In this document: positions 9,545-64,000 of the stretch, piece by piece
Layout: each line of letters begins with the position of its first letter
How positions within the stretch are numbered: position 1 is the stretch's first letter
DNA from: Dehalococcoidia bacterium
GTDB lineage: Bacteria; Chloroflexota; Dehalococcoidia; UBA2979
Reading direction: 5' to 3'
DNA length: 64,000 nucleotides
NCBI GenBank assembly: GCA_965219085.1
Contig: OZ244720.1
Span: 576,001 to 640,000 of the forward strand
Made by a program: the position numbers and the translations under genes
Notes under the pieces: model-generated
Databases searched by the model: none
What the model saw: the letters and a program-made list of their open reading frames with translations, nothing else
Told to the model about the DNA's origin: nothing

Positions 9545-9621
9545 TTCACGCTATGTTCACAGATAAGAGTGCTAAAGTTCACGCTCCGTGCACTGACACC
9601 AAGCCAACGAGCAGGAAGAAT
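9545..9621 (+). promoter_or_regulatory. Conserved activator-box promoter, copy 1
   Basis: TTCAC at 9545, 9556 and 9578; TGCAC at 9589; CTGACA(9593)-17 nt-AAGAAT(9616). Confidence 0.7.
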
Positions 9622-9934
9622 TGCCCCATCCAACCTGTGAGAGCGCAACACGCTCGCGCGAGGGGGCATTGGTGCGTCCGACGGTCGCGAAATCGAACGG
9701 GAACGCGCGGGAGGCAGGCGCAACGGCGCTGAACGAGCGCACTGGTGCCGGCCCGCGGGCCGGGCCTCTCTCTCTCTGTTGCTTCAACCGCCTCGGCCAC
9801 GTCGCCGCACGCCCCTCCGCCGTCTCTCATACGAACCGTCGCCGCCCTCGACGCTCCAGTAGGTGCGCGCTGGCGACCCCGTTGGACGGAGGCCTGGCGA
9901 CGGCCATGCGCAACACACACCAGAAGGGGACACG

Positions 9935-12322
9935 ATGACCCGCACAGCCAGACCCAGGCTCGCCATCCTGTTCGTCGCCCTGGCCGCGCTGCTGGCACTG
10001 CCCCTCTCCGGCCCGGGGGCCCTGGCCCAGGACGGCTCCGTTCCCGATCAGCCCACGGGACTGTCCACCGAAGCGTCCCACGACTCCGTTGCGCTCGCCT
10101 GGGACGACCCCGGCGACACCAGCATCACCCACTACCAGGTATTGCGGCGCGACCGCGACATCCACGCCGCCGGCGAGTTCGTCACCATCAAGGAGAGCAC
10201 CGGCTCGGCGGCAAGGAGCTACACGGACGACACCGCGGAGCCCGAGAGGCGCTACGTGTACCGGGTGAAGGCGGTGAACCAGCACGGGGCCAGCACGTGG
10301 TCGAGCTACAGCAGGGCCAACACTCCGGGGGCTCCACCGCCGGAACTCGAACCCGACACTGACAACGCGCCACACGGTTCGGAGGGCGGTCCCCCTACGG
10401 GTGCGCCTGCGATCAGCGGGACAGCACACGTCGACGAGACGCTGATCGCGGACACCGACGGCATCAGCGATCCCGACGGACTGACCACGCCGAACTTCAC
10501 ATACCAGTGGCAGACCACTCCTCCGTGGACGAGCGCCTTCACCGACATCCCCGATGCGACCGGCCGTCGTCTCAGCTTGAGTGACGACGAATTCGCCAAG
10601 CGGGTGCGGGTGCTGGTGCACTTCACCGATGACGCCAGCAATCCGGAGTCGGTTGCCAGCGAGCCGACCAGGGTCGTCCGCGCGAATGCCGGTTGGGCGG
10701 ATTACGCGGACCCTGTTTCGGTGATCATGACTAGGGACAATTGGAGGCCCGTCGGGAGTGACGGGATCGACATCAACATCACCTTCGGAATCATGGTCGG
10801 AACTTCGGGGGGCATCTATGTCAGGGTGCCAACCACCGAGTTGGCGCTGGACGACATCGTTGTTACCAACGGCACGGCGTCGAATTTGCGTACGATGCAC
10901 AGACTCTACTCACAGTATCGGGTCAGAGTCGCGCCCACGACCGTGGGCGAACCCATCACAGTGCAGGTACCAGCAGACGCCGTCACGTCATATGCCGACG
11001 AGGACAGCAAAGGAAATTCGGCGTCGCGGATCCTCACCATTCGGACTGTCTCCGACACCACGCCGCCGTCGGTACTGAGGATGTACTACGCGGAATCCGA
11101 CTACTCTCCTACGCCTCATCAGGGGCCGTACACGGTGTACATCGACTTCAGCGAGGTCGTGCGGGCGATCAAGCGCGCCGACTTCACCATCACGCCCTCG
11201 ACCACCCGCGTGAGCGTCTATGTCGTGGGAACCAAAGGCGTCGTCTCCGTTACTCCACCGGACGAGCATTACGCCGGTGACATTACGGTCACGCTGAACG
11301 CGCTGACGGTTCGGGACTACGGCGACAACCTGAACCAGGAGTCCCACAGCATTACCCGCACCGTGGCGCCGGATACCGAGAAGCCCGAGGTGGTGCGGGT
11401 ATTCGACTATCTCGGCGATCTCAATTACCGACTTCTCTTCCTGAACAGCGAGCCGACGACTGTGATCAACAGAGATGGGCTCGTGCTGCAGGACGCTCAT
11501 GATGAACAGCATGTCATCCCGGGAGAGCTGCGGAGCCGATACGGGGGACATGACGACGACCTGATGCAATTCGTCCCGTCCTACCAACGGTCCTATCCCG
11601 CCTGCCTGAGGCTGACCATCAAGGCCGGCGCCTTCCGGGATTGGGCGGGCCAGGAGAATGAAGAACAGGTGCTGTTCGTAGACCACAGTAGCGGCGTCAA
11701 TTGTCCGCCACGGCACCGGCCACCGGCTCGCACTTCGCTCATCGGCCTCGACCTGACCGACGGCGCTGCTCTCGTCGGCCTCAACCCAAAGGAGAAACCG
11801 CCCGACGGGAAGCCGACCACCACTCCGGACTCCGGCGTAACCACCCGCTCCGACCTCACCGAATCCGCCCAGGGTGCGGTCTACACCTACCAGGACGGCG
11901 ACCGCACCCTGCGGGTCCGGCTGCAGACCGACCTGGTCGCGCACCGCAGCGCCGACAACACCGCCGACGACATCGTGGTCGCGAGCAACGGCGGCGAGAG
12001 CATCGTGCGGAGGCAGCCCGGGCACGAGCGCACTGACGAGCAGCCGGTCTTCCGCTCCCAATCCGGCGGCGGCTTGATGACGCTGCCCGGCGGCGTGCTG
12101 CTGGTGCTGGACGCCGCCTGGGACGAGGCGCGGGTCGATGACTTCCTCGTCCGGAACAAGATCGCGCAGAGCCGCGTATCGGCGCTGCGATTCGCCCCAA
12201 ACGCCTTCCTCGTGGAGACCGATCCCGGGTTCCCGTCGCTGGACCTGGCGAACGCGCTGGCTGGCCAGGACGGAGTGCTGATCTCCAGCCCCAACTGGCG
12301 CAGAGAAGTCGTTCCCTACTGA
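9935..12322 (+). CDS. Secreted FN3/Ig-like protein with a C-terminal S8 propeptide/chaperone-like module
   Basis: GAAGGGG RBS; signal peptide MTRTARPRLAILFVALAALLALPLSGPGALA; FN3 and Ig-like repeats; C-terminal TLPGGVLLVL...SLDLANALAGQDGVLISSPNWRREVVPY. 795 aa. Confidence 0.85.
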   Translation: MTRTARPRLAILFVALAALLALPLSGPGALAQDGSVPDQPTGLSTEASHDSVALAWDDPGDTSITHYQVLRRDRDIHAAGEFVTIKESTGSAARSYTDDTAEPERRYVYRVKAVNQHGASTWSSYSRANTPGAPPPELEPDTDNAPHGSEGGPPTGAPAISGTAHVDETLIADTDGISDPDGLTTPNFTYQWQTTPPWTSAFTDIPDATGRRLSLSDDEFAKRVRVLVHFTDDASNPESVASEPTRVVRANAGWADYADPVSVIMTRDNWRPVGSDGIDINITFGIMVGTSGGIYVRVPTTELALDDIVVTNGTASNLRTMHRLYSQYRVRVAPTTVGEPITVQVPADAVTSYADEDSKGNSASRILTIRTVSDTTPPSVLRMYYAESDYSPTPHQGPYTVYIDFSEVVRAIKRADFTITPSTTRVSVYVVGTKGVVSVTPPDEHYAGDITVTLNALTVRDYGDNLNQESHSITRTVAPDTEKPEVVRVFDYLGDLNYRLLFLNSEPTTVINRDGLVLQDAHDEQHVIPGELRSRYGGHDDDLMQFVPSYQRSYPACLRLTIKAGAFRDWAGQENEEQVLFVDHSSGVNCPPRHRPPARTSLIGLDLTDGAALVGLNPKEKPPDGKPTTTPDSGVTTRSDLTESAQGAVYTYQDGDRTLRVRLQTDLVAHRSADNTADDIVVASNGGESIVRRQPGHERTDEQPVFRSQSGGGLMTLPGGVLLVLDAAWDEARVDDFLVRNKIAQSRVSALRFAPNAFLVETDPGFPSLDLANALAGQDGVLISSPNWRREVVPY

Positions 12323-15300
12323 GATCACTCGCGCTGGTCGTCGCCTGCGTCCTGCTTGGCGTCGTGGCCGCGCCCGGCCTCGCGCGAGCGCAGGCGCCGC
12401 CGCCCGCCGCCGCCCCGACCATCGACTCGGTCACGCCCGACGAACGCTCGCTGATCGTGCACTGGCTGGCGCCCGCCGGCGTCGACGCGGCGGACATCAG
12501 CGCCTACGACGTGCGCTCCATCGAGAGCGATGCGCCGGACAAGGCCGCCGGCCTCTGGACCGTCGTGTTGGACGCCTGGAGCACGGGCGCGGGCGACCTG
12601 CACTATCTGATCACCGGCCTGACCAACGACACGCAGTACGACGTGCAGGTGCGCGCGGTCACGATGGATGGCGAGGGCTCCTGGTCGGCCACCGTCACCG
12701 GCACACCCGCCGACCACAGCGGCGCGATCGCCGGCGCAACCGCGCTGGCGCTGGACTCCACGGCAACCGGGGTCATCGAGGCGGGCGGCGACAAGGATTT
12801 CTTCAAGATCGTGCTGAGCAGCGCCACCGACCTGTGGCTCTACACGAGCAGCAATCTCAACACCGCGGGCGTACTGTACGGCGCCGACGGCGAAGTCCTC
12901 AGATCCAACATTAATCCCTGGTGGCCGGACTGGTCACAGGACTTCGAGATCCGCAACCGGCTGGGACGGGGAACCTACTATGTCAGCGTCCGCGGTCGAT
13001 GGTCGAGCGTCACTGGGCCGTACACGCTGCATGCGCGAACGGCGATCGCCCCCGGCGGCTCCATCGCCGATGCCACGGACATCACCCTTGGCGCCCCGGC
13101 GGCGGGGCGGATCAACGCGGCGGGCGACCGGGACGTCTTCAAGCTCGTGCTGACCAGCGCCGCCGACCTGTATATCGCCGCCAGCGGCTATGTCGACACG
13201 TTCGGCGAATTGCTCGATGCCAACGGCTACCGCCTCGCCGAAAGTGACGACAGCGGCCTCAGGTTCAACCGACGCAACTTCGCAATCTGGCGCGCGGTGG
13301 AGCCGGGCACCTACTACGTCCGGGTGCGCGGCTGTTGCGACTGGGCGAGGGGGCCGTACACGCTCCACACGGTCGCACTCCCTCCACCCGGCGACTCCAT
13401 CGCCAGCGCCGAACACACTACCCACCGACTGACCCCGGTGCGGCTGGCCGAAGCCGACGACGAGCATTATTTCGCCATCGGGCTCTCCATCGACTTCTAC
13501 GTGAATATCAGCGCCATGGTCACCCATCGCATGCTCTCTCCCAACACGCGCGCCTCGCTTGCGGCGGAGATCCTCGACCAGGATGGCAATCCGGTGGACA
13601 TTAGTCTGATCCCCCACAGCTCCTACATCGCGGCTGGCTTTGGGAGCACAAGTTTTTCGATCTTAGACGAACTCAGCGCCGGCACGCACTACCTCAGAAT
13701 CTGGTCTCCCTCCGGCGAACCCGGAGAGTACCTGCTTCTGCTCTACGGCGACAGCGCGTATACGAAGCAGATTCGCTGGTGCACCGCCAAGGAGACCCCC
13801 ATCAGCGACCCCCTGTCCGGCTGTCAGTGGCACCTACGCAACAGCGGACAGTACCCCGGCGGGGCGGGACAGGACATCAACGTCGAAGACGCCTGGACCA
13901 CCACCAGGGGCGCCGGCGTCAACGTCGCGGTGGTCGACAACGGGATGCACTTCGAGCACGAAGACCTGACGGACAACGTCGACCCAGCCCGCAACCGCAA
14001 CTACTCCTCCTGGAGGCGCAGCATATTCGACCCCTACCACAGCCACGGGACGAACGTGGCCGGCCTGATCGCGGCGCGGGACAACGACATCGGCATGCGC
14101 GGCGTTGCGCCGCGGGCCACGATCTACGGCTACGACATATTTTCGGAAATCACGGACGCCAATATTGCAGACGCCATGTTCAGGATGGGCGAGGGGTCCA
14201 CGCCGGGCGACGAGGACACCGCCGTGTCCAACAACAGCTGGGGACCGCGACACTCCTCCGGCCCGGCCTGGGCGCATGCCTCCTGGGAGACGGCCGTCCA
14301 GAACGGGGTGACGAGCGGCAACCACGGCAAGGGAATCTTCTACGTCTTGGCCGCCGGCAACGGGCATCAGGTTGACGACAACGCCAACCTCAATGAACAC
14401 ACGAACTACTACGCGGTTACCGCCGTCTGTTCGGTCAACTACGACGATGAGCGAAGCAGCTACTCGGAAACGGGCGCGAACCTGTGGATTTGCGCTCCTT
14501 CAAACGGTGCTGGCAGGCGGATCGCGACGACCCATAACGGCCACCTCTACACCACCTCGTTCGGCGGCACGTCCGCGGCCGCTCCCATTGTCTCCGGCGT
14601 CGCCGCGCTGTTGCGCAGCGCAGACGACAGTCTGACCTGGCGGGACCTGAAGCTCATCCTCGCCGCGTCCGCGCGCAAGAACGATGAGATGCACGCCGGC
14701 TGGGCGCAGGGCGCGCTGGAATACGGCTCCGACAGCGAGCGCTACTTCTTCAACCACGAGTACGGCTTTGGCATGGTCGACGCCGGAGCCGCCGTCGCTC
14801 TGGCCGGCGGCTGGACCAAGGTTCCGGCCCTGCGCGAGATCAGCGCGGAATCGGAGGACAAGGATCTGGAGATTCCCGACCGTCCCTCCGGTGGCGCCCC
14901 GATCACGGTTTGCCGCAGTGTGACCGTCGGGAACCATGTGGGATTCACGGAGTTCGTCGAGATCAACACCAGGTTCGACCACGGCACCTTCAGGGATCTG
15001 CAAGTGGAGCTGGTGTCCCCCTCGGGCGCCGTGTCCACGCTGGCCGTCCCCGTTCCGCACTGGGGCATGGCGCTGAGAAGCGTGGCGCTGAGAGATCCCT
15101 ACCGGTTCGGCTCGGCCCGGCACCTCGGCGAGAACGCCGCCGGCGAGTGGACGCTGTGCATCACGGACAGGCGCCCGGGTGGACAGGGAACACTCGAGGC
15201 GTGGAGTCTGACCGTCTACGGACACGGATATACGCCCGGGCGCCCCGAAATCAGTGCGTTAGCCCCGGCCGTCGAGGCGCTCACAGTTGAATGGAGCGCC

Positions 15301-18300
15301 CCCGCCGACATCGGCGGCTCGGCCGTCACCGCCTACGACCTGCGCTACATCGAGAGCAACTCCAACTTCGGGGCCGGCGCCAACTGGACGGTCGTCGAGG
15401 GGGCGTGGACCTCCGGCGCACTGGAATACACCGTCGGCGGCCTGGACTTCAGCGCCAGGCGCGACGTGCAGGTCCGAGCGGTGAACGATGCCGGTCCCAG
15501 CCGCTGGTCCGCCACGGCCGCGGGAGCGCCCGTGAGAAACGAACCGCCCTTTTTCCCGGCGGGGTTGACCACGACTCGGTCCGTGGCCAAGAACACGGGC
15601 GGGAGCACGCCCATCGGCGCGCCGGTCACGGCCACCGACCCCGAGGGCGACACCTTGGTCTATACGCTCTCGGGCCTCGACGCGGACCTGTTCACCATCG
15701 AGAGCCGGAGCGGGCAGATCCGGGTTGCGCCGGACACGACGGTAGGCAACCAGCCGGGGAGGACATACGCCGTTGAGGCGAGCGCCACCGACCCCTATGG
15801 CCTCAAGGACCGCACCTTTGTCATCATCGGCGTCACCGACCAGAACGAGGCGCCGGTCGTGAGCGGGCTCGCCCGCGTGGACTACGCCGAGCAGGGCACG
15901 GCGGACGTGGCGATCTACAGCGCAGAGGATCCAGAGCACGCCACGATCGCCTGGTCGTTGGAGGGGACGGACGGCGGCGACTTCCGCATTAGCGACACCG
16001 GCGTGTTGGGCTTTGAGGAGCCGCCCGACTTCGAGTCCCCGGCGGACTCGGGCGAAGACAACGAGTACCTGGTGCGAGTGCGGGTCTCCGACGGCGTGAA
16101 CGACGACACACTCGACGTGACGGTGACCGTCACGAACGAAGAGGAGGCGGGGACGCTCACGCTGTCCTCGCAGCAGCCGCTGGTGGGCACCTTGCTGACC
16201 GCCACGCTCGACGACCCCGACGGCGACATCACGAGCCTGTCGTGGACATGGGAGCGCTCCCTGAACCGCAGCACCTGGAGCGAGATCACGGGGGCGACGT
16301 CAGCCAGCTACACCCCGCTCGCGGCCGACGACCTCAACCACTACCTGCAGGTCACGGTCGAGTACACCGACGGGCACGGCTCGGGCAAGAGCCTAGCCGC
16401 GGTGACGCACCGCGCGGTGGAGGAGCCGCCGCCGGTCAACTACCCGCCGGTGTTCGCCGACCCGAGCACGACCCGCTCCGTCGCCGAGAACTCCGCCGAG
16501 GGAGCCACGGTCGGCGAGCCGGTCACCGCCACCGACGACAACAACGACACGCTGTCGTACACGCTCACGGGCCGCGACGTGGACACGTTTAGCGTCGACG
16601 ACTCCACGGGGCAGATCCGCGTCAAGCCGGGCGCGGCGCTCGACTACGAAGACCCGAACTCCTTCCCCTACATCGTGACCGTCACCGCCAGCGACCCCTC
16701 CACCACATCCGACAGTATCGAGGTCGAGATCACCGTCGATGACGTGAACGAGGCACCCGAGGCGGTGCGCGACGACGCCACGACCGTCGAGGACATGAAG
16801 TTGACCGTCGACGTCCTGGCCAACGACAACGATCCCGACGCGGGCGATCCCAACGACACCCTGACCGTCTCGGTGAGCACGCCGCCGGACAACGGGGTCG
16901 CCGAGGTCAATGCCGACCGGACCATCACCTACGCGCCCAACGCCGACTTCCACGGCGTCGACACGTTCACCTACCAGGCGACCGACGCCGGGGGCCTCTC
17001 CGGGGAGGCCATGGTCGTCGTGACGGTCGATCCGGTGAACGACGCGCCGGTGTTCGCGGAAGGTTCGGCCGAGCGCGAGGTCTACGCGGGCGCCACGGCG
17101 GACACGGAGGTCGGCGACCCGGTGGAGGCCACCGACCCGGATGGCGACATCCTGGAGTACGCACTCTCGGGCATCGACGCGAGCAGCTTCGTGATCGACT
17201 CGGACACGGGCCAGATCACCATCGGCGCGGACACCGAACTCGACCCCGAGGTCCAGGAGACCTACCTGGTGACGGTAACCGCCTCCGACGGCACGCTCAT
17301 GACGCCGATCGAGGTCACCATCACCGTCACGGAGCGCCCGGCGATCACCACCGGGGGCGGCGGTAGTGGTGGCCCGTCGGGGCCCTCGCCGAGCGAGCTG
17401 GACTTCGAGTGGAACGTGAAGCGCGACCTCGAAGCGCTGGACGGCGGCCACGACACGCCTACCGGCGCCTGGTCGGACGGCACAACCCTCTGGGTACTCG
17501 AGAACGGAGACGGCGCCGGCGACGCCATCTACGCCTACGACCTGAACACGGGCGAACGCCTGGAGGAGCGCGAGTTCGAACTCGACGAGCGCAACCGCGC
17601 GCCGCGCGGCGTCTGGTCCGGCGGCACGGTCATCTGGGTCTCCGACAGCGGCCAGGACCGCCTCTTCGGCCATGACCTCGAGACGGGCGAGCGGCTGCCG
17701 GAGCGCGACCTCGAGCTCGACGAGGACAACGGCGCCGCCCGCGGCATCTGGTCGGATGGCGAGAGGATGTGGGTGCTCGACGGCGGCAAGGACAGCCTCT
17801 TCGCCTACGACCTCGGGAGCGGCGCGCTGGTGGCCGAGTACGCCCTCGACGACGCCAACGGCGACCCTCACGGGATCTGGTCGGACGGGGTGACGATCTG
17901 GGTCTCGGACCACGGCGCGAAGCGGCTCTTCGCCTACCGCCTCGAGGATGGGGAGCTCGTACGCAACAGCGAGGAGGAGTTCACGGAGCTGAGCAAGGCC
18001 TCCAACAACAGCCCGCGCGGCATCTGGTCGGACGGCGAGGTGATCTACGTGGCCGACGAGAGCGACGACAAGGTCTACAGCTACAACATGCCCGACGCGA
18101 TCGACGCGCGCCTCGCCTCGCTGACGCTGAGCGGCATCGAGATCGGGGAGTTCTCGGGGGACCGCACGGAGTACGACGGCGTCGCCGCCGAGGGCGTGAC
18201 GGAGACGACGGTCGAGGCGGAGGCGCTGCAGCGCCGCACGACCGTCCTCATCGAGCCGGCCGACGCCGGCGGCGACGACACGAACGGCCACCAGCTGGCG

Positions 18301-19230: not shown

Positions 19231-19377
19231 CCCGCCATGCTCCAGGAGCGCCGCGAGGCCTGCCGTGGCGACGAGGTCGACGAGTGCCTGCTCCTTGGGG
19301 TAGAGCTTCTCGCCCGGAGAGCGACGGCATCCGCACGAGCACGTCCTCCGGCTCGGGGTTGAAGACCGTCTTGCCAC

Positions 19378-20130: not shown

Positions 20131-20132
20131 TG

Positions 20133-47467: not shown

Positions 47468-47499
47468 CGCGCCTGCCCCGCCAGACACGACCGCTCCGC

Positions 47500-55244: not shown

Positions 55245-55322
55245 CTCCGTCCGGCGGCAGCCTGCGGTCCCAGCGACGCCCGGACGCGTGTGGCTGCCTC
55301 TACCACGTCGATCAACCGATAT

Positions 55323-55396
55323 GTTACGACCCGGTCACGGAGAAGGCACCTGATTTCACGACGCACGCACCGACGCTCGTCCGGCTGAGGGAGAAT
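55323..55396 (+). promoter_or_regulatory. Degenerate sixth copy of the activator-box promoter
   Basis: GTTAC 55323, GTCAC 55334, TTCAC 55355, CGCAC 55366 (spacing 11/21/11); CCGACG-15 nt-GAGAAT. Confidence 0.5.
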
Positions 55397-55469
55397 CGAG
55401 CCGGCTCGATTTGGGGACGTCTACTCGTCCGACCGCGCGCTCCTCCCGGTCGCCGGCAGCAGCCAGTAC

Positions 55470-55705
55470 CGCCCGCCACGACCTCGTGAGCGGAGAGTGC
55501 CTCGCGGAGCGCGACTTCGAACTCGACGAGCGCAACGGCGATGGCGCGGCATCTGGTCCGATGGCGGCGCGAGATCGCCGTCATCGTCCCCTCGCACGAC
55601 GCCACCCGCCCGCGCGCCGACCGGGCGCGACCGCGATCGCAGAGCCCTCGCCCCACTGCCTGTTCGGTCATCGCCACAGGCTTCTGCCTCGTCGTCTACG
55701 AAGGC
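55470..55705 (+). pseudogene. Heavily eroded remnant of the shared C-terminal cassette
   Basis: GAGCGCGACTTCGAACTCGACGAGCGCAAC...GGCATCTGGTCCGATGGC and GGCTTCTGCCTCGTCGTCTACGAAGGC match cassette segments. Confidence 0.6.
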
Positions 55706-55716: not shown

Positions 55717-55792
55717 TTCACGGTACTTTCACCCCAAATATTGCCTAGTTCACGCTGCATGCACTGACACCCGGCCCGATGGCAGGAAGAAT
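55717..55792 (+). promoter_or_regulatory. Conserved activator-box promoter, copy 5
   Basis: TTCAC 55717, 55728 and 55749; TGCAC 55760; CTGACA(55764)-17 nt-AAGAAT(55787). Confidence 0.7.
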
Positions 55793-55846: not shown

Positions 55847-56134
55847 GTGGCCGATTCCGGCGATTCCGCACGAGCGAGGGTCGACGCCCGCCCGGCCGCC
55901 AGTCCCGCACGCGCGTGCTGGACTGGCGGCCGGGGCGGGGTGCAGGTCGCTGAATTCCTCGTCCGCAACAAGATCGCGCAGAGCCGCGTATCGGCGCTGG
56001 GACTCGCTCCCAACGCCTTCCTCGTGGCGACCGACCCCGGGTTCCCGTCGCTGGACCTGGCGAACGCGCTGGCCGGCCAGGACGGAATGCTGATCTCCAG
56101 CTCCAACTGGCGCAGGGAAGTCGTTCCGAGTTGA
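55847..56134 (+). CDS. Short ORF carrying the C-terminal half of the propeptide/chaperone-like module; may be degenerate
   Basis: AGGAGG then GTG 55847; 95 aa ending FLVRNKIAQSRVSAL...SLDLANALAGQDGMLISSSNWRREVVPS; TTGA overlap with the protease start. Confidence 0.55.
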   Translation: MADSGDSARARVDARPAASPARACWTGGRGGVQVAEFLVRNKIAQSRVSALGLAPNAFLVATDPGFPSLDLANALAGQDGMLISSSNWRREVVPS

Positions 56135-59100
56135 GACCGCTCGCGCTGGTCACCGCCTGCGTCCTCCTTGGCGTCGCCGCCGCGACCGGCCTCGCGCGCG
56201 CGCAGGCGCCGCCGCCCGTCGCCGCCCCGACGATCGACTCGGTCACCCCCGGCGAACGCTCGCTGATCGTGGACTGGACGGCGCCCGCCGGGGTCGACGC
56301 GGCGGACATCCTCGCCTACGACGTGCGCTCGATCGAGAGCGACGCCGCGAACAAGGCCGCCAGCTTCTGGACCGTCCTGGAGGATGCCTGGATCCCGGGC
56401 GCGGGCGACCTGAGCTGGATCATCTTCCCCCTGACCAACGACACACAGTACGACGTGCAGGTGCGCGCGTTCACGGAGGATGGCGAGGGCGACTGGTCGG
56501 ACACCGTCACCGGCACGCCCGTCGCCAACAGCGGCGACCGCACCGGCGCGACGCCTCTGCCGCTGAACTCCACGGCGATCGCAGTCCTCACCGAGGACGA
56601 CCAGGATTTCTTCAAGATCGAGGTCACGGGCGACGACACGGTCGACCTCTGGATCTACACGATCAGCGATCTCGACACCGTGGGCGAGCTGCAGGACTCC
56701 GCCGGCAACATGATCGCACGCAACGACGACGGCCAGCGGCCGGACTCGCCGCAGGACTTCGTGATCAGGGAGCAGGTCGGTGCGGGAACCTACTATGTCA
56801 CGGTCCATGGCTATAGGCCGACGGTCGTGGGGGCGTACGCGGTGGTCCTACGAACGGCCCCCAGCGTCGGCGGCACCATCGACCGGGCGACGACCATCAC
56901 GCTGGGGGATGACGTCCCGGGGCGGATCGACTGGAGCACCAACAACGACTTCTTCCGGATCGATCTGACCAGCGCCGCCGACCTCTGGATCGCCTCCAGC
57001 GGCTACACCGACGTGGTCGGGGAGTTGTGGGATGCCGACAGGGTGCTCATCGCCAGAAACGACGACAGCTATCTTTATCGGAGCGGGCTCAACTTCGCGA
57101 TCTGGCACGAGGTGAAGGCGGGAACCTACTACATCAAGGTGAACGGTTATGCATCGTATGTAGCGAATACTGGGGCGTACACGCTCCACACCGGAACGAT
57201 CCTCCCTCCCGGCGACTCCATCGGCAGCGCACAGCCCATTAGTGGGGTGCTGATCCCAGGGCGGGTGCGCACGGCCACCGACGCGCACTATTACAGCCTC
57301 TTTGTCGGTTCCGACACCCAAGTGTATATCGAGGCCGACGTGGGCCCAAATCCGATGTTCTCTCCCGAGCAGCCCGTGTCGCTCGCGGCGCAGATCCTCG
57401 ACGTGCATGGCAATGAGCTGGACATCTATCAAATCCCCCACAGCGCCTACATCGAGGACGGGCGGTCGTTCATCAGCTTTTCGATCAACGGCAAACTCCC
57501 CGTCGGCACGCACTACCTCAAAATCTGGTCCCCCTCCGGCGGCACCGGACCCTACATGCTGCTGGTCTTTGGCAGTACCGGCTACAACAGGTTCATAAAC
57601 GGCTGCACCGATGCGTCGGCCAGCCTGGACGTCCCGGGCGTGAACGATGCCCTCTACGGATGCCAGTGGCACCTGCACAACGGCGGGCAGTACGAGGGAG
57701 GGGCAGGAGAGGACATCAACGTCGAAGCTGTCTGGACGACCAACATGGGAGCCGGCGTGAACGTCGCCGTGGTCGACGACGGGATTCACTTCGAGCACGA
57801 AGACCTGACGGAGAACGCCGCCCCATCCCGCAACCGGAACTACTCCACTCGCGCCGACATATTCGACCCCTTCGAGCACCATGGGACGAGCACGGCCGGC
57901 CTGATCGCGGCGCGGGACAACAGCATCGGCATGCGCGGCGTCGCGCCCCGGGCCACGATCTACGGATACAACCTGTTCGCGGACTTCACGGACGCCAATA
58001 CGGTGGACGCCGCGTTCCGGATGGCGCAGGGAGGCGAGGCCGGGGACGAGACCACCGACGTCTCCAGCAACAGCTGGGGACCGACGCCCACCGCCGGCCC
58101 GCGGTCCACGTCCGCCAGTTGGGAGATGGCCGTCCAGAACGGCGTCACGAGCGGCGCCAACGGCAAGGGAATCTTCTACGCCTTTGCCGCCGGCAACGGA
58201 CATTACGTGACACACCACGCCAATCTCAACGGGCGCGCGAACTACTACGCCGTCACCGCCGTCTGTGCGGTCAACTACGACGATGTGCGAAGCGGCTACT
58301 CGGAAATGGGCGCCAACCTGTGGGTGTGCGCCCCATCCAATGATGACAATCTGCCCGAGATCGCGACGACCTACGGCGGCCACCTGTACACGGACGAGTT
58401 CGGCGGCACGTCCGCCGCCACTCCCATCGTCTCCGGCGTGGCCGCGCTGCTGCGCACCGCCAATTCCAGTCTGACCTGGCGGGACCTCAAGCTCATCCTC
58501 GCCGCGTCCGCGCGCAAGAACGATGCCGACAACACGGGCTGGGCGCAGGGCGCGCTGGAATACGGCTCCGACAGCGAGCACTACTTCTTCAACCACGAGT
58601 ACGGCTTTGGCGTGGTGGACGCCGGGGCCGCCGTCGCGCTGGCCGCCGACTGGACCAACGTTCCGGCCCTGCGCGAGATCAGCGCGGAATCGGCCGGCAC
58701 GGATCTGCACATTCCCGACGCTCCGAGCGATACAATCCCCGGCACGACGGTCAGCAGCAGCCTGACCATCGGCAACCATGTGGGATTCGTCGAGTTCGTC
58801 GAGATCCACACCACGTTCGACCATGAGTCGTTTCGAGAGCTCGAGGTGGAGTTGGAGTCCCCCTCGGGCGCCAGGTCCACGCTCACCTGGGTATTCGACC
58901 GCATTTATCACCGGCCCGTGGAGGAGACTATCCGCTTCGGTTCGGCCCGGCACCTCGGTGAGAACGCCGCCGGCACGTGGACGCTTCACATCACCGACCA
59001 CCTCGACACGCGGACGGGAACGCTCGAGGGGTGGAGTCTGACCGTCTACGGACATGGACTCTCGCCCGGGCGCCCCGGCATCAGCGCGCTGACGCCGGCC

Positions 59101-62100
59101 GTCGGCGAGCTCGCGGTCGAGTGGAGCGCCCCCGCCGACATCGGCGGTTCGGCCGTCACCGGCTACGACCTGCGCTACATCGAGAGCGACGCCGCCGACA
59201 GGGCCGCCACCAACTGGACGCTCGTCGAGGGTGCGTGGACCTCCGGCGCACTGGAATACACCCTCGGCAGCCTGGACCCCACCGTCAGGTACGACGTGCA
59301 GGTCCGGGCGGCGAACGATGCCGGCCCCGGCCCCTGGTCCGACGCCGTCGCGGGGACGACCCTCGCCCTCGCGCTCCCGTCCGTTGCCTCGGTCACCCCG
59401 GACGACCGATCGCTCACGGTCGCCTGGACCGCTCCCGCCCAGAGCGGCGGCGAGCCCATCGCCGCCTACGACCTGCGCTACATCGAGACCAGCGAGGACG
59501 AAGCGGTCGACGCCGACTGGACCGTTGTGGACAGCGCGTGGACCGGCGGCGCGCTGGCATACACCATCAGCGCACTGGACAACGGCACCCGGTACGACGT
59601 GCAGGTGCGCGCGGTCACCACCAGCAACGGCGACTGGTCCGCCAGCCTGACCGGCACGCCGCGCACGGTCCCCGCAGCCCCCGCCATCGACGACGTGACA
59701 TGGGGCGACCAGGAACTCACCGTCGTCTGGACGGCGCCCTCGAGCGACGGCGGCGCGGCCATCACCACGTACGACGTGCGCTACATCGAGACCAGCGAGG
59801 ACGAAGCGGTCGGCGCTAACTGGACGGTCCTGGACGGCGTGTGGGCGGCCGGCGCCCTGCACCACGTCCTCACGGGACTGGAGAACGGCACGCAGTACGA
59901 CCTGCAGGTGCGGGCGGTCAACGCCGCCGGCGAGGGTCCCTGGTCCGCTACCACCGCTCGCAGGCCCAGGACCGTGCCGGGCGCCCCGACGATCGACTCG
60001 GTGACCGGCGGCCAGCGGTCGCTCAGCGTCGAGTGGAGCGCGCCGGCGAGCGACGGCGGTGCGGACGTCTCGTCCTATCACCTGCGCTATCGGCCCACCA
60101 ACACTGAGGGCAAGCCCAGCATCGTCCAGTGGACCCTTCTGGCCGATATCTGGACCTCCGGGGCGCTCGAATACACCATCAGCGGTCTAGAGCACGCGAC
60201 GCAGTACGACGTGCGGATGCGCGCGGTGAACCTCGTCGACGAGGGCGAGATCTCGGAACTTGCCCAGGGATCCACCCTCAGCCTGGCCCCGACGGTCGCC
60301 TCGGTGACCCCGGACGACGGATCCCTCACCGTCGCCTGGACCGCGCCGACGAGCGTCGCCAGCACGGAGATCACCGCCTACGACGTGCGCTGGATCCGCA
60401 GCGACGCGCCCGGCAAGCCCGCCGACCACTGGGACCTTCAGTTGCTCGCGTGGGAGACCAGCGGTGCGCTGCAATACACGATCAGCGGGCTGGCCAACGG
60501 CGTTGCCTACGACGTGGGGGTGCGACCAGTCACCTCGGCCGGCGAGGGCGACTGGTCGCTGAGCTGGTCCGGGACGCCCCGGACGCTCCCCGCGGCCCCC
60601 GCCATCGACTCCGTGACGCCGGACGCCGGGTCGCTCACGATCGTCTGGGCCGCGCCTGCAAGCGACGGCGGGGCGGCCATCACGTCGTACGCCGTGCGCT
60701 CCATCCGCAGCGACGCCGCGAGCAAGGCCGACGGCAACTGGACGGTGCAGGACGACGCCTGGACCAGCGGCGCGCTGCAGTACACCCTCTCCGGCCTGGA
60801 TAGCGGCGTCGCCTACGACGTGCAGGTGCGCGCGGTCAACGCCGCCGGCGACGGTCCCTGGTCGGCCACGCAAGCCGGGGAGACCGCGACCGACGACGAC
60901 GCCAGCCTCAGCGCCCTGACCCTGAGCGAGGGCAGGCTCAGCCCGGCGTTCGCCGGCGGCACGACGTCGTACACGGCATCGGTCGGGTACACGGTCACGC
61001 CGCTCACCGTCACCGCCACCGCGAACGACGCCAGCGCCGCGGTCGCGTTCCTCGACGGCAGCGACGATCCGCTCCCCGACGCCGACGGCAACGCGGCCGG
61101 CCATCAGGTCGACCTGTCGGTGGGCGACAACGCGATCAACCTGCAGGTCACGGCGCGGGACGGCACGACGACGCTGACCTACAGCCTCACCGTTACGCGC
61201 GCGGAGGAAGACACGTCGCTGACGCCGCCGGCGAGCGACCCCGTCGTCGCGGTGGCGTCGTCGGCCGTCTACACCATCACCTTCACGGGCACTTGGACCA
61301 CCGCCGTCACGCCCGACGGCCGACCCGGCAGCGCCCACTTCTCGCCCCTCATCGGCGCGGTGCACAGCGCTGAGGTGTCCTTCCTCAAGAGCGGGGAGCT
61401 GGCAAGCGCCGGAGTCGAGTCGATGGCGGAGACCGGTGGCACGTCAGACCTCCGGAGCGAGGTCGACACCGCGATCAACGCCAGTCCGCCGACGGCTCTC
61501 AGCGTCCTCCGCCGGTCCGGCAACATCGGCGCGACGGGCACGGGGACGTTGAACAACGTCAAACTGACGAGCGAGCACCCGCGGGTCACGCTGACGACGA
61601 TGATCGCGCCGAGCCCGGACTGGTTCGTGGGCATCTCGGGGCGGCTCCTGCTCGACGCCGCCGGAGAGTGGCTGCCGTCGCACACGCTGAACCTCTATCC
61701 GTGGGACGCCGGCACCGAGGACGGAACCGGGTTCTCGCTGTCGAACTCCGCGACCTCGCCGCAGGGCGTGATCACGAGCATCCGCGGGACGGGCAAGTTC
61801 ACGATCGCACCGATCGCGACGCTGACGTTCACGCGCCAGTCGGTCTCCCCGTCCTTCCCCGCCGCCGAGAGCGGCGCCCGCGGCATCCCCGAGAACACGG
61901 CCGCCGGAGAGAACATCGGCGCGCCGGTCGCGGCCACGGACCCCGACGGCCACACGCTCACCTACGCGCTGGGCGGGACCGACGCGGACTCCTTCGGCAT
62001 CGTCGCCACGTCGGGCCAGCTGCGGACGAAGGCCGCTCTCGACCACGAGGCCAAGTCCAGCTACTCGGTGACGGTCACGGCCACGGATACCACCGGCCTC

Positions 62101-64000
62101 AAGGCCGCGGTCGACGTGACCATCACCGTCAGCAACGTGAACGAGCCGGGGAGCGTGTCGCTGTGGCCCCTGCAGCCCGAGGCCGGCACAGCGCTCACGG
62201 CCACGCTGGACGACTCGGACGGCGGCGTGCAGTCGCTGACCTGGGCGTGGCACAAGTCCTCGGACCGCAGCACGTGGACCAGCCTCTCCGGCAGCGGAGA
62301 CAGCTACACGCCGGTGGACGGCGACGTCGGGGCGTACATCCGGGCCAGGGCCTCCTACACCGACGCCGGCGGCTCGGGCCGGACCGCCGAGGCCGTGTCG
62401 GATCAGACGGTCGTGCGCGCGCCGGAGATCACCGTCGTCGAACTCGTGACCGGCCTCAGCATCCCCTGGGACCTCGCCTTCACGCCCGACGGGACGATGC
62501 TCTTCACCCAGCGGTCAGGCGTGCTGAGCAGCCGTCTCGGCGACGGCACGGTGCAGACCGTCAGCGCCGACTTCGGCGACCTCTACGCCTTCGGCGAGAC
62601 CGGGCTGATGGGCATCGTCGTTGATCCCGCGTTCGCCTCGAACCGGCGCTTCTACACCTGCCAGGGCCACACCGGTCCCGAGATCCAGGTGATCGCCTGG
62701 ACCATCGACGCGGACTACACGACGGCCACGCGGGTCGCCGATCCGCTGGTCGGAGACCTGCCCGCCGCCTTCGGCGGCCGCCACGGCGGCTGCCGGCTGC
62801 GCTTCGGCCCGCAGGGCTACCTCTGGATCGCGACCGGCGACGCCGCGACGGGCACCGTCCCGCAGGACCTGGGCTCGCTCGGCGGCAAGGTGCTGCGCGT
62901 CAACGCCGCGACGGGCGCCGCGGCGCCGGGCAACCCGTTCAACTCGCGGGTCTACAGCTACGGACACCGCAACGTGCAGGGCCTGGCGCTCCGTCCGGGC
63001 ACGAGCCAGATGTGGTCGGTCGAGCACGGCCCGTTCGTCGACGACGAGATCAATCTGCTGGTCTCCGGCGGCAACTACGGCTGGAACCCCGTGCCCGGCT
63101 ACAACGAGAGCGTGCCCATGACCGACCTCGAGGAGTTCCCCGGCGCGGTCGAGGCCGTGTGGTCGTCGGGCGCCCCGACGCTGGCCACCAGCGGCGGCAT
63201 CTTCCTCGAGGGCGACGACTGGGGCGCGTGGGAGGGGCGGCTGGCGGTCGCCACGCTGGCGGCCGCCGAGCTGCATGTCTTCAAGTTCAGCGCCGACGGC
63301 GCGCTCATGAGCCAGGTCGTCGTCGCCGAGCTCGATGGTACCTACGCCCGGCTGCGGACGCCCATGCTCGGTCCCAACGGCGCCCTCTACGTCACCACCT
63401 CGAACACAAGCTCGGACCGCATCCTGCTGGTCGCCCCCAGCCTGCCGCCGGCGTTCCCGGCCGCGACGGACACGCAGGAGGTGGCCGAGAACAGCCCCAC
63501 CTCGACGGTCGTCGCCACGGTCACGGCCACGGACCCGGAAGGCCAGGCCCTCACGTACACGCTGGGCGGGACCGACGCGGCGCTCTTCAACATCGCGGAC
63601 CCCGCCGGCGGCCAGGTGCGGGCCAATACGCCGCTCGACTACGAGGCCCAGAGTTCGTACCAGGTCGTCGTCACGGCCTCGGACCCCTACGGCCTGAGCG
63701 ACAGCATCACGCTGACCATCAACGTCAGCAACGTCGTCGAACTGACGACGCTCACGGGTCCGGCGAGCGTCAGCTACGCGGAGAACGGGGCGCTCCGCGT
63801 GGCCACCTATACCGCCTCGTCCCCGGAGCACAGTGAGAGCATTGCTTGGTCGCTGTCGGGCGTCGACGCCGCGCACTTCAGCGTCGACAACCCCGCCGGC
63901 GTGCTCAGATTCCACATCGACCCGACCGCCCCCAACCTCTTCCCGCAACCGCCCGACTTCGAGGACCCGGCCGACGCCGGGAGCGACAATGCCTACCAGG
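56131..64000 (+). CDS. Giant secreted kexin-like S8 serine protease 3 (FN3, PPC, S8, P-domain, FN3 array, Spondin_N, cadherins, PQQ sugar dehydrogenase domain); runs off the window
   Basis: Manual translation from TTG 56131 is open to 64000. Signal peptide xRPLALVTACVLLGVAAATGLARA; triad VVDDG, HGTSTAG, GGTSAATP; Spondin_N APSPDWFVG; GSDH-like IPWDLAFTPDG, HGGCRLRFGP, YSYGHRNVQG. Confidence 0.9.
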   Translation, partial: MRPLALVTACVLLGVAAATGLARAQAPPPVAAPTIDSVTPGERSLIVDWTAPAGVDAADILAYDVRSIESDAANKAASFWTVLEDAWIPGAGDLSWIIFPLTNDTQYDVQVRAFTEDGEGDWSDTVTGTPVANSGDRTGATPLPLNSTAIAVLTEDDQDFFKIEVTGDDTVDLWIYTISDLDTVGELQDSAGNMIARNDDGQRPDSPQDFVIREQVGAGTYYVTVHGYRPTVVGAYAVVLRTAPSVGGTIDRATTITLGDDVPGRIDWSTNNDFFRIDLTSAADLWIASSGYTDVVGELWDADRVLIARNDDSYLYRSGLNFAIWHEVKAGTYYIKVNGYASYVANTGAYTLHTGTILPPGDSIGSAQPISGVLIPGRVRTATDAHYYSLFVGSDTQVYIEADVGPNPMFSPEQPVSLAAQILDVHGNELDIYQIPHSAYIEDGRSFISFSINGKLPVGTHYLKIWSPSGGTGPYMLLVFGSTGYNRFINGCTDASASLDVPGVNDALYGCQWHLHNGGQYEGGAGEDINVEAVWTTNMGAGVNVAVVDDGIHFEHEDLTENAAPSRNRNYSTRADIFDPFEHHGTSTAGLIAARDNSIGMRGVAPRATIYGYNLFADFTDANTVDAAFRMAQGGEAGDETTDVSSNSWGPTPTAGPRSTSASWEMAVQNGVTSGANGKGIFYAFAAGNGHYVTHHANLNGRANYYAVTAVCAVNYDDVRSGYSEMGANLWVCAPSNDDNLPEIATTYGGHLYTDEFGGTSAATPIVSGVAALLRTANSSLTWRDLKLILAASARKNDADNTGWAQGALEYGSDSEHYFFNHEYGFGVVDAGAAVALAADWTNVPALREISAESAGTDLHIPDAPSDTIPGTTVSSSLTIGNHVGFVEFVEIHTTFDHESFRELEVELESPSGARSTLTWVFDRIYHRPVEETIRFGSARHLGENAAGTWTLHITDHLDTRTGTLEGWSLTVYGHGLSPGRPGISALTPAVGELAVEWSAPADIGGSAVTGYDLRYIESDAADRAATNWTLVEGAWTSGALEYTLGSLDPTVRYDVQVRAANDAGPGPWSDAVAGTTLALALPSVASVTPDDRSLTVAWTAPAQSGGEPIAAYDLRYIETSEDEAVDADWTVVDSAWTGGALAYTISALDNGTRYDVQVRAVTTSNGDWSASLTGTPRTVPAAPAIDDVTWGDQELTVVWTAPSSDGGAAITTYDVRYIETSEDEAVGANWTVLDGVWAAGALHHVLTGLENGTQYDLQVRAVNAAGEGPWSATTARRPRTVPGAPTIDSVTGGQRSLSVEWSAPASDGGADVSSYHLRYRPTNTEGKPSIVQWTLLADIWTSGALEYTISGLEHATQYDVRMRAVNLVDEGEISELAQGSTLSLAPTVASVTPDDGSLTVAWTAPTSVASTEITAYDVRWIRSDAPGKPADHWDLQLLAWETSGALQYTISGLANGVAYDVGVRPVTSAGEGDWSLSWSGTPRTLPAAPAIDSVTPDAGSLTIVWAAPASDGGAAITSYAVRSIRSDAASKADGNWTVQDDAWTSGALQYTLSGLDSGVAYDVQVRAVNAAGDGPWSATQAGETATDDDASLSALTLSEGRLSPAFAGGTTSYTASVGYTVTPLTVTATANDASAAVAFLDGSDDPLPDADGNAAGHQVDLSVGDNAINLQVTARDGTTTLTYSLTVTRAEEDTSLTPPASDPVVAVASSAVYTITFTGTWTTAVTPDGRPGSAHFSPLIGAVHSAEVSFLKSGELASAGVESMAETGGTSDLRSEVDTAINASPPTALSVLRRSGNIGATGTGTLNNVKLTSEHPRVTLTTMIAPSPDWFVGISGRLLLDAAGEWLPSHTLNLYPWDAGTEDGTGFSLSNSATSPQGVITSIRGTGKFTIAPIATLTFTRQSVSPSFPAAESGARGIPENTAAGENIGAPVAATDPDGHTLTYALGGTDADSFGIVATSGQLRTKAALDHEAKSSYSVTVTATDTTGLKAAVDVTITVSNVNEPGSVSLWPLQPEAGTALTATLDDSDGGVQSLTWAWHKSSDRSTWTSLSGSGDSYTPVDGDVGAYIRARASYTDAGGSGRTAEAVSDQTVVRAPEITVVELVTGLSIPWDLAFTPDGTMLFTQRSGVLSSRLGDGTVQTVSADFGDLYAFGETGLMGIVVDPAFASNRRFYTCQGHTGPEIQVIAWTIDADYTTATRVADPLVGDLPAAFGGRHGGCRLRFGPQGYLWIATGDAATGTVPQDLGSLGGKVLRVNAATGAAAPGNPFNSRVYSYGHRNVQGLALRPGTSQMWSVEHGPFVDDEINLLVSGGNYGWNPVPGYNESVPMTDLEEFPGAVEAVWSSGAPTLATSGGIFLEGDDWGAWEGRLAVATLAAAELHVFKFSADGALMSQVVVAELDGTYARLRTPMLGPNGALYVTTSNTSSDRILLVAPSLPPAFPAATDTQEVAENSPTSTVVATVTATDPEGQALTYTLGGTDAALFNIADPAGGQVRANTPLDYEAQSSYQVVVTASDPYGLSDSITLTINVSNVVELTTLTGPASVSYAENGALRVATYTASSPEHSESIAWSLSGVDAAHFSVDNPAGVLRFHIDPTAPNLFPQPPDFEDPADAGSDNAYQ

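Follow-up and report, generated by a model that had tools for sequence, protein, structure and literature searches.

Introduction

Subtilases are the textbook case of propeptide-dependent folding. The Lif foldases of Pseudomonas and Burkholderia are membrane-tethered steric chaperones whose gene shares an operon with that of the secreted enzyme they fold, and in Aeromonas sobria the gene for ORF2 is located downstream of asp. According to PMC13492141, ASP, the serine protease of this species, is a kexin-like enzyme with a P domain and without a propeptide of its own; it needs the separately encoded ORF2, an external chaperone whose C-terminal tail is said to be critical. Another report describes a free-standing propeptide-like inhibitor, the SUB1 propeptide-like protein of Plasmodium (PMC6993865).

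Here we describe a locus in a Dehalococcoidia-type genome of 3.3 Mb which resembles the ASP/ORF2 pair: a kexin-like S8 protease with a P domain has a separately encoded neighbouring helper. The helper differs from ORF2 in being the C-terminal domain of a larger carrier, encoded upstream and often coupled to the protease gene by an NTGA overlap, and the protease differs from ASP in being a giant of 2000-4700 aa; compared with Lif and its partners, fold and enzyme class are unrelated.

Results

The window, the whole stretch of 64,000 nucleotides analysed, covers the opening 55 kb of a tandem array, at 585-719 kb of the genome, in which paralogous genes encode giant secreted proteins. It holds five promoter cores, three kexin-like S8 giants each with an upstream module, two regulators and cassette debris. 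The giant genes, with the partner gene A, are as follows.

9935-12322, + strand: gene A, partner protein of 795 aa with signal peptide, FN3, Big_12 and C-terminal module (Pfam, translation)
12319-19230, + strand: gene B, kexin-like S8 giant of 2303 aa, counted from CTG at 12319 (candidate start)
20541-28673, + strand: gene C, S8 giant of 2710 aa starting at the TTG of TTGA; carries Spondin_N and cadherins as cargo, and the cassette
29803-42096, + strand: gene D, 4097 aa, without protease (Pfam)
56131-64000 (window end), + strand: gene E, S8 giant starting at the TTG of TTGA; carries FN3, Spondin_N, GSDH and cadherins as cargo

The candidate start of gene B overlaps the stop of gene A, and its product runs from a signal peptide through FN3, three PPC-like repeats, S8, P domain and cadherins to the cassette. 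Gene D is composed of signal peptide, FN3, LRR, Calx-beta, an ASST-like domain, PKD repeats and cassette; gene E extends past the window to genome position 646158, with a cassette at its end. The differing cargo named in a preliminary description of this DNA, comprising Spondin_N, LRR, ASST-like, PKD, cadherin and GSDH domains, was matched throughout by Pfam (Spond_N, LRR_8, Arylsulfotrans, K319L-like PKD, Cadherin, GSDH).

That description also had each of the three kexin-like proteases overlapping an upstream module of one family. The family is indeed present at all three, joined to the protease by a 4-base NTGA stop/start overlap (CTGA for B, TTGA for C and E), but only the copy in gene A is intact, those before C and E having decayed.

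11879-12319, + strand: module of gene A, about 147 aa, with beta-rich N-half, ferredoxin-like C-half and C-terminal tail (AF2 model, fold matches)
20298-20543, + strand: module remnant before C, from the conserved Met, without signal peptide and with two frameshifts
55943-56134, + strand: module remnant before E, the last ~62 aa, 87% identical to A, its first third and signal peptide gone

In the source genome each of the 11 module copies immediately precedes an S8 giant with the NTGA overlap, and the same holds for all eight complete module loci in congeners; the module was found in 9 of the 18 congeners. A survey of other species gave 80 module loci, 77 of them scorable: a homologue of the gene B N-terminus follows in 74 of the 77, an S8 domain in 66 of the 74 loci having room for one, and 75 of the 77 modules end in K or R. 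Species-representative genomes contain 295 stretches of the family, and metagenomes contribute 707 cluster representatives; among the best 150 metagenomic representatives the module forms the protein C-terminus in 140, and 113 of these 140 end in K or R. A basic end of this kind would agree with the P1 preference of the kexin/furin family. Gene A itself ends in Tyr and an Arg end is found in only 5 of the 11 source-genome copies, which counts against reading the module as a prodomain.

The module tracks S8, not the promoter described below. Module-S8 pairs without the promoter element occur at 355, 371, 856, 1783 and 1952 kb of the genome, and gene D and four other promoter-bearing giants have no module. 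A cognate module can be dispensed with in cis, for 4 of the 15 full S8 giants in the source genome also lack one, and C and E have only decayed copies before them.

The protease domains match Peptidase_S8 in Pfam at E 5e-41 to 2e-37, and in B, C and E a P_proprotein domain follows the catalytic part immediately, as in the kexin/furin subfamily (S8B). The best PDB sequences for the catalytic region of gene B are furin (1.3e-40), kexin (4e-40) and ASP (8e-37; entry 3hjr, and 3wqb in complex). Entry 3wqb presumably also contains the ORF2 chain. Gene B shows no I9 match that would indicate a prodomain of its own; FN3 and three PPC-like repeats precede its S8 domain and thus leave no room for one. 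Of the residues that make the S1 pocket of furin acidic, a phmmer alignment places Asp258 opposite His and Asp306 opposite Asn of gene B, with a conserved Glu adjacent; the pairing of Asp258 with His counts against the prodomain reading of the module.

The AF2 model of the module (pLDDT 89.4) has a C-half of beta-alpha-beta-beta-alpha-beta order. Five of the 50 fold matches listed for it are S8 prodomains or I9 inhibitors (9fid_D, 3whi_B, 6mw4_A, 3t41_A and 1v5i_B), with 9fid_D superposed at Z 5.8 and rmsd 2.4 over 71 aligned residues; these prodomain matches (Z 5.2-5.8) are tied with RRM, S6 and ACT folds, the best Z being 6.5. Foldseek gave no match for the model at E 0.001 or better, and Pfam none at E up to 5, propeptide families included, for the 173-aa C-terminus of A. 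ORF2 was considered as a sequence relative and rejected: a profile of 139 module sequences run against all PDB chains, 3wqb among them, reached a best E of 0.39, with unrelated chains.

Prediction of the complex between module and S8 domain gave a score of 0.91, the best control scoring 0.01; the mark used for such scores is reached by 116 of 157 solved complexes and by 2 of 215 mismatched pairs, but the score may stem from likeness to solved propeptide complexes and so shows resemblance, not binding. Contacts agree in at least 93% between runs, with partner pLDDT of at least 82, and module residues 160-170 are predicted to touch D20, H56, N161 and S232 of S8. In the models, the module has the beta-alpha-beta-beta-alpha-beta topology of the cis prodomains of subtilisin, furin and kexin and of I9 inhibitors such as POIA1, and like them it is predicted to dock on the catalytic domain so that its C-terminal tail enters the active site. 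It differs from them in having an extra beta-rich N-half and no Pfam match to I9 or S8 pro-domains, and from the cis prodomains in being a separate polypeptide, placed N-terminally in the same chain only in fused relatives. In these natural fusions (P0025, P0037 and P0119) the module is followed by PPC domains, which separate it from S8, and no internal signal peptide intervenes. Taken together, the modelled fold, the predicted complex, the terminal K or R and the natural fusions make the module look like a detached subtilase prodomain.

The same predicted interface would serve a permanent dock instead of a transient foldase, in which case the carrier stays bound and tethers the giant to the membrane while the protease is silent and acts as a binding module. 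PCSK9, which retains its prodomain (PMC8551645), provides a precedent; the free K/R C-terminus is product-like, and lipobox-like N-termini are present in carriers of the source genome (LLAC, VTGC, LAGC) and in 32 of 148 full-length metagenomic representatives. The carrier encoded by gene A, however, has an ordinary signal peptide and no lipobox, several giants have decayed modules only, and the Asp-His-Ser triad and oxyanion Asn (D20, H56, N161, S232) are invariant in 13 of 13 S8 paralogues, a conservation that argues for an active enzyme. We regard a permanent dock as unlikely, and return below to the detached prodomain.

The three complete giants, B, C and D, share one C-terminal cassette, as had been noticed at the outset.

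17374-19227, + strand: cassette of B, comprising five-bladed propeller, cadherin-like sandwich, tail domain, second sandwich and tail domain
27093-28670, + strand: cassette of C, the copy used for the structure model
40489-42093, + strand: cassette of D

Cassettes are about 520-700 aa long; at the protein level identity reaches 95% between C and D (518 aa) and 78% between B and D (519 aa). The AF2 model (pLDDT 79.9) superposes best on five-bladed glutaminyl cyclases (3nol, TM 0.76 by target), and the top Foldseek E-value belongs to an archaeal S-layer YVTN propeller with PKD domains (1l0q, E 1.4e-11). The two tail domains are small, alpha/beta and Cys-containing. Pfam matched only Cadherin-like and, weakly, NCH3 in the cassette, with no match in the tail, and found none of the named sorting or wall-binding modules LPXTG, SLH, T9SS CTD and PEP-CTERM at the C-terminus. 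T9SS C-terminal domains, autotransporters and archaeal YVTN/PKD S-layer proteins likewise join many passengers to one terminal module; the array cassette, a putative anchor, differs from these in being five-bladed, about 520 aa long and outside the named sorting or wall-binding Pfam families. Judged only by fold likeness and position, it may be a non-covalent handle to the cell envelope.

Debris of further members lies at the two places already described and, additionally, at the left edge of the array.

9312-9509, + strand: decayed cassette tail-domain piece from a lost member (tblastn)
51860-52272, + strand: last sandwich and tail domain, 93-98% identical to the end of B, with one frameshift
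55477-55705, + strand: propeller blade and partial tail

The left-edge piece is 43% identical over 70 aa to the cassette of B (tblastn), and DNA at 9451-9506 is 95% identical to 19031-19086. Near-full propeller matches occur in 34 ORFs of the source genome. Cassette DNA is 90-100% identical among 11 array-family genes whose cargo is entirely different, against 76-82% between the array family and four genes of other clusters. The picture of variable passengers on a constant C-terminal cassette, with recombination active, was therefore borne out; to go by these sequences, gene conversion keeps the cassettes near-identical among neighbours while cargo swaps. Mutable simple repeats of the kind that marks phase-variable contingency loci were not found in the window's units; tracts of C13 to C22 are present in the leaders of four other members.

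The two regulators reported inside the array were both recovered, with a nest of insertion sequences between them.

42250-42930, + strand: PAS-LuxR (GerE) regulator (Pfam)
43292-47596, no strand assigned: IS nest, an IS630-like gene (- strand) split by an IS256-like element, then an IS5/IS1182-like element (Pfam)
52854-55244, - strand: hybrid regulator of 796 aa, GAF-PAS-HisKA-HATPase-REC-Trans_reg_C (OmpR-type winged helix; Pfam)

The sole paralogue of the PAS-LuxR regulator also adjoins a giant gene. For the hybrid regulator, all five paralogues in the source genome adjoin cassette giants, in favour of a regulatory role in the array; against it, just 9 of 34 homologue loci in congeners show a cassette at a distance of up to 8 kb. 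The last stretch of the IS nest (47400-47594) has a 100% identical counterpart elsewhere in the genome.

With the five window copies as query, nhmmer searches of the 3.3-Mb genome returned 11 strong promoter copies (E 2.8e-24 to 2.5e-16), all on the + strand and with a giant ORF downstream of 10. The five in the window agree with the five units of common promoter architecture first described, except that the copy matched from 43199 now starts no gene.

9545-9621, + strand: promoter core of unit A/B, nhmmer match from 9543, -35 CTGACA at 9593-9598, -10 AAGAAT at 9616-9621
20133-20208, + strand: promoter core of unit C, match from 20127
29534-29609, + strand: promoter core of unit D, match from 29530
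43203-43278, + strand: fifth promoter core, -10 GAGAAT, an orphan because homology ends at the following IS
55717-55792, + strand: promoter core of unit E, match from 55711
55316-55406, + strand: decayed promoter copy with phased repeats kept (nhmmer E 4.4e-05)

The element consists of CTGACA-17-AAGAAT behind four phased TTCAC repeats, TTCAC-like direct repeats standing at offsets 0, 11, 32 and 43; the offsets are exact in 9 of the 11 copies and off by 1 base in the other two. All copies are of common ancestry, and the promoter has spread by segmental duplication.

This common descent admits a simpler explanation, in which the repeats were inherited with the duplicated segment and expression is constitutive or absent. 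Homology between copies reaches into the previous gene's tail and intergenic DNA, the element was not found in the 18 congeners, and searches elsewhere in the genome for the repeat and -35/-10 patterns gave just 2 to 4 chance-level pairs. Yet divergent leader groups keep only the repeats, -35 and -10, with 95.3% identity at motif positions and 50.9% at the others, the motif positions having been picked after seeing the alignment; the four repeats lie on one helix face, the last abutting the -35; and phased T(T/C)ACA(C) repeats stand in the spacer at 3 of 3 inspected congener regulator-giant/carrier loci, though an unbiased count gave no confirmation. We think it somewhat improbable that the promoter is shared without special regulation. 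Operators of the OmpR/PhoB type, pho boxes and similar, are direct repeats 10-11 bp, about one helical turn, apart reaching the -35; the array promoter is alike in its phased direct repeats next to the -35 and its nearby Trans_reg_C gene. Repeats and promoter together suggest a putative operator for an OmpR-type regulator, for example the hybrid kinase-regulator in the array, which differs from the OmpR/PhoB systems in that sensor, kinase, receiver and DNA-binding parts are fused in one polypeptide.

Discussion

The preliminary description had joined promoter, module and cassette into one undescribed display system under a single regulator, its passengers diversified by recombination for host interaction. 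Promoter, module and cassette do exist and do occur together in the window, the conversion of cassettes beside differing cargo accords with the proposal, the array contains regulators, and 5 of 5 paralogues of the hybrid regulator in the source genome abut cassette giants. Cadherin and FN3 genes are, moreover, reported as enriched in sponge-associated MAGs (PMC8163846). But co-dependence of the three is not supported by their distribution: all 18 congeners, and all 24 genomes of the family, have the cassette, whereas 9 of the 18 congeners have the module and none the promoter. A check of co-occurrence within the source genome upheld the link of module to proteases, 24 of the 34 cassette genes and the five module-S8 pairs listed above having no promoter element, and the module being confined to S8 giants. 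The three features thus occur in part independently of one another, in nested, separable distributions, and one integrated system appears very unlikely. We consider it probable that the array is explained by three independent layers: a family-wide cassette, a split zymogen and a duplicated promoter.

In the mechanism we propose, every array member would end in the family-wide cassette of propeller, Ig-like sandwich and two tail domains. The kexin-like S8 members would have no prodomain of their own, and the upstream, translationally coupled gene would encode a carrier, secreted or lipid-anchored, that ends in the detached prodomain of ~150 aa. Its sheet is predicted to pack on the catalytic domain, and the free C-terminus, usually K or R, to sit in the active site like a cleaved propeptide end; the detached prodomain may thereby fold the exported protease and keep it latent. 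Units would have multiplied by segmental duplication together with one sigma-70-type promoter, the four phased TTCAC repeats forming a putative site for an OmpR/PhoB-type regulator, most simply the array's hybrid kinase-regulator.

Tentatively, and with rather less confidence than in the three layers, we suggest that these parts combine into a widespread two-gene zymogen, an array built on that pair, one operator-promoter and hybrid one-polypeptide kinase-regulators. The prodomain would be split exactly at the autoprocessing site and placed on a carrier that is often lipid-anchored, whose natural K/R C-terminus may plug the active site from the start. This zymogen would occur in Dehalococcoidia and in a few MAGs labelled Binatia and Thermodesulfobacteriota; we found no published description of such a two-gene zymogen.

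If this is true, a natural separate, pre-cleaved propeptide would provide a clean system for foldase and inhibitor action in trans, and would explain the latency of giant multi-domain proteases during export. For symbiont biology, the array illustrates how a small genome builds dozens of giant adhesin-like proteins by means of one tail, one promoter, cargo swap and gene conversion, with candidate regulators now named.

Layout of the array

The window corresponds to G000:C1:576001-640000 of a genome assembled as a single contig of 3.31 Mb; G+C is 60-72%, and giant genes on the + strand start from 9.3 kb of the window onward. The array genes A-E and the features lying between D and E are as follows.

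9935-12322, + strand: A, 795 aa; signal peptide, FN3, Big_12 and, as its C-terminal ~150 aa at 11879-12319, the module
12319-19230, + strand: B, 2303 aa; S8 (kexin-like) protease and P domain at 13879-15228, cadherins
20541-28673, + strand: C, 2710 aa; S8, P domain, Spondin_N, cadherins
29803-42096, + strand: D, 4097 aa; LRR, Calx-beta, ASST-like, PKD
43292-47596: insertion-sequence nest; IS630-like gene (DDE_3 and HTH parts, - strand) split by an IS256-like element, then an IS5/IS1182-like element
47682-50979: two overlapping RCC1-repeat ORFs; 21 tandem units of 111 bases
52315-52812, - strand: 500-base repeat, a piece of a DEAH-helicase-like gene
52854-55244, - strand: hybrid regulator, 796 aa
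56131 to past the window end, + strand: E, partial in the window; S8, P domain, FN3, Spondin_N, GSDH, cadherin

The D-E interval holds a PAS-LuxR gene, the nest of three insertion sequences, the RCC1-repeat ORFs, cassette debris (pieces of the giants' shared C-terminal block) and the hybrid regulator. A copy at genome position 1259153 matches the end of the IS5/IS1182-like element with 100% identity. The two RCC1-repeat ORFs appear to be a single gene that a frameshift has split; considered as the body of a fifth unit, they showed no link to the promoter copy at 43199 or to the cassette debris. The repeat at 52315-52812 was likewise ruled out as a small gene downstream of the giants, being a helicase-like fragment on the - strand; it is 76-82% identical to copies at genome positions 720253, 1861361, 1864050, 2617092 and 3111557, several of which sit immediately beyond giant-gene ends, and is probably mobile-element debris. 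The 5' side of the array holds an ORF for an ORC/CDC6-like ATPase (2533-4914) and an rve-type transposase (5942-6955), with a truncated LytB gene on the - strand at 7825-8838. Three DNA runs yielded contigs that matched 9401-29400 in short pieces only, with joint sides of 20-37 letters (all but three <30), from which strain variation is unreadable.

The module is paired with S8 proteases

The preliminary description had each kexin-like protease of the window overlapping an upstream module. The overlap holds genome-wide: the module recurs at 11 sites, each immediately 5' of an S8 giant, and at all 11 its stop overlaps, in an NTGA (ATGA three times, GTGA four, TTGA three, CTGA once), the beginning of the protease signal peptide. 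Within the window, however, only the module of A is intact, those 5' of C and E being stumps without export signals. Full carriers, the proteins bearing the module, carry either a signal peptide or a lipobox-like Cys, followed by a low-complexity linker and the module. Counting stumps, the module precedes 11 of the 15 full S8 giants and is missing from the other four.

The pairing extends to other genomes. It was found at 8/8 complete loci in congeners (18 genomes of the same genus) and at 5/5 loci in two other genera, there adjacent but non-overlapping. At 80 loci of other species, most of them from records titled Dehalococcoidia, a homologue of the B N-terminus lies downstream in 74 of the 77 scored, an S8 domain follows in 66 of the 74 long enough to hold one, and three further loci continue without a stop. 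The NTGA overlap accompanies a long open frame in 25/77; GTGA alone is no evidence, as it results from a K or R codon followed by TGA. Close relatives of the module with a protease gene downstream also occur in MAGs titled Candidatus Binatia and Thermodesulfobacteriota (loci L151, L172, L174 and L158), which suggests transfer between phyla.

Some individual pairs have features of their own. One carrier and S8-giant pair is present in two inverted copies ~490 kb apart (G000:C1:365482-372410, - strand; 854862-861790, + strand), with identical carrier proteins and junctions, matching ORF lengths, and S8 and N-terminal regions that score alike against B. The stump at G000:C1:653960-654301 is an intact 81-aa ORF from the conserved Met, without signal peptide and coupled to an S8 giant; it may have been kept solely as a leader ORF that couples translation. 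B lacks an ATG, GTG or TTG at the start position of its paralogues; a CTG (12319) overlaps the A stop and the next GTG (12364) would remove the signal peptide, so B may start at CTG through coupling, or may be impaired.

The module as a candidate detached prodomain

The module matched nothing in Pfam and no PDB sequence. In its model (pLDDT 89.4) one half is rich in beta structure and the other is beta-alpha-beta-beta-alpha-beta; the latter aligns at Z 5.2-5.8 with the prodomains of PC1/3, subtilisin E, CspC and EpiP and with POIA1, an I9 inhibitor, values no better than those for RRM or S6 folds. The predicted complex of the module with the catalytic and P region of B scored 0.91, against 0.01 for the best control (a mark attained by 116/157 solved complexes and 2/215 mismatched pairs), with at least 93% contact agreement across runs and partner pLDDT of at least 82, and places module tail residues 160-170 on Asp20, His56, Asn161 and Ser232. 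Because such complexes have already been solved for relatives, we take the predicted one as a likeness to theirs.

Three independent facts fit the picture of a prodomain encoded apart from its protease. The module stands at the very C-terminus in 140 of the 150 best metagenomic representatives, with K or R last in 113 of the 140, and the last module residue is K or R at 75/77 genome loci of other species. In fused forms, "...TR-QDPGE..." runs directly into a PPC domain and then S8, with no signal peptide; the split proteins therefore stop where the propeptide would be cut. Finally, FN3 and three PPC-like repeats occupy residues 18-470 of B, so that a prodomain within B itself cannot fit, and its catalytic domain begins like mature furin. 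Against this reading, A ends in Tyr, furin Asp258 is His in B, and four S8 giants are without module.

A shared promoter within one lineage

The claim that five units share a promoter was borne out: their upstream elements align over a ~90-base core. A search of the genome with the core profile returned 11 strong copies, each on the + strand, plus a weak one; ten of the strong copies lead into giant ORFs, 2339 to 4735 aa long, and the eleventh, at 43199, is interrupted by an insertion sequence. The invariant part is CTGACA, 17 bases, AAGAAT (promoter scanner; 0.0 expected in shuffles). Upstream of the -35, TTCAC-like pentamers occur four times (offsets 0, 11, 32 and 43), the fourth abutting the -35, with spacing kept in 9/11 copies and off by one base in the other two; the repeat and -35/-10 patterns are essentially absent elsewhere in the genome. 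Between divergent copy groups the repeat, -35 and -10 blocks are 95.3% identical, against 50.9% at the other positions of the same 76 bases, a descriptive comparison for which the blocks were picked after the alignment was seen. Conservation so selective suggests that the promoter is functional, with an activator of OmpR/PhoB type, the type associated with such repeats.

The element was found in 0/18 congeners by BLAST, and in 0/18 by the strict pattern, an insensitive search that matched only 2/11 copies in the own genome. Because no congener copy appeared and homology among the copies extends over the preceding gene's tail and intergenic DNA, we conclude that the promoter was multiplied by segmental duplication inside this lineage.

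A structured RNA in the leaders was rejected: four of them gave a weak consensus fold (-18.6 kcal/mol over 225 columns), and Rfam had no match at gathering score in the window, nor up to E 1 within 9400-10000. Genome-wide there are only 10 homopolymers of at least 9 bases, six of them sense-strand poly-C tracts (C13 to C22) in 5' leaders of giant cassette genes (G000:C1:666342, 690794, 704603, 2601931, 1893117 and 1923246). A congener has a C11 tract at an equivalent kind of place (L108:10650), and the window counterpart is CT-rich (9760-9775, 29770-29790). Such tracts could act as a mutable switch, or as a C-rich Rho site.

Regulators

The hybrid regulator has GAF, PAS, histidine kinase, receiver and OmpR-type DNA-binding domains. 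Its five paralogues in the genome all adjoin cassette giants, and two of them show the same divergent layout, together with debris, promoter and giant. Members of the family occur in 14/18 congeners, and the regulator-cassette link is not general, since a cassette part lies within 8 kb of only 9/34 congener regulator loci. Three of these, on inspection, have spacers containing phased T(T/C)ACA(C) repeats; one carries a C11 tract. When phased 5-mer triples were counted without bias around the regulator homologues, 85 turned up, against 15-33 in shuffles; these were mostly GC-rich coding repeats and not discriminating.

A constant C-terminal cassette with variable cargo

B, C and D do end in the same cassette, as proposed: a glycine linker, five ~45-aa repeats, a cadherin-like sandwich and two Cys-containing ~85-aa domains, in that order. 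Its model (pLDDT 79.9) is a five-bladed propeller, an Ig-like sandwich and two alpha/beta domains; the best superpositions are with five-bladed glutaminyl cyclases, and the top E-value belongs to a YVTN propeller that comes with PKD domains in an archaeal S-layer protein. The small tail domain was considered as a second prodomain, since it too is beta-alpha-beta-beta-alpha-beta, and was rejected because hhalign against the module gave a probability of 0.2%. The cassette is present in 18/18 congeners (3 to 41 matches per genome) and in 24/24 genomes of the family. Its supposed association with the promoter stood in part: ten cassette ORFs lie behind the promoter, but the other 24 of 34 do not.

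Variable cargo recombined onto a constant end found support in the DNA. Propeller DNA is 90-100% identical among 11 genes of the array family, B equalling the gene at 646 kb and C that at 654 kb, and is 76-82% identical to four genes of other clusters, whereas at the protein level the protease regions of B, C and E share only 61-69% identity. Near-identical propellers beside divergent proteases show that the tail evolves in concert, with cargo exchanged freely.

Proposed working of the system

The case closest to the split pair is ASP, a kexin-like protease of Aeromonas, and the external chaperone ORF2 that serves it (PMC13492141); in the search of PDB chains the module showed no sequence relationship to that case. 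Sponge-associated MAGs are enriched in cadherin and FN3 genes (PMC8163846). In the literature on sponge-symbiont giants and split or external prodomains, supplements aside, we found no description of the split pair or the array.

From the anatomy, synteny, conservation patterns and predicted folds presented here we infer the following working steps. Phased repeats would recruit a response regulator; the carrier would be exported and the giant translated from the same mRNA. The S8 domain would fold on the carrier's prodomain, whose C-terminus would block it until the carrier is removed, or the S8 domain may stay docked there, as PCSK9 does. The cassette would hold the giants at the envelope.
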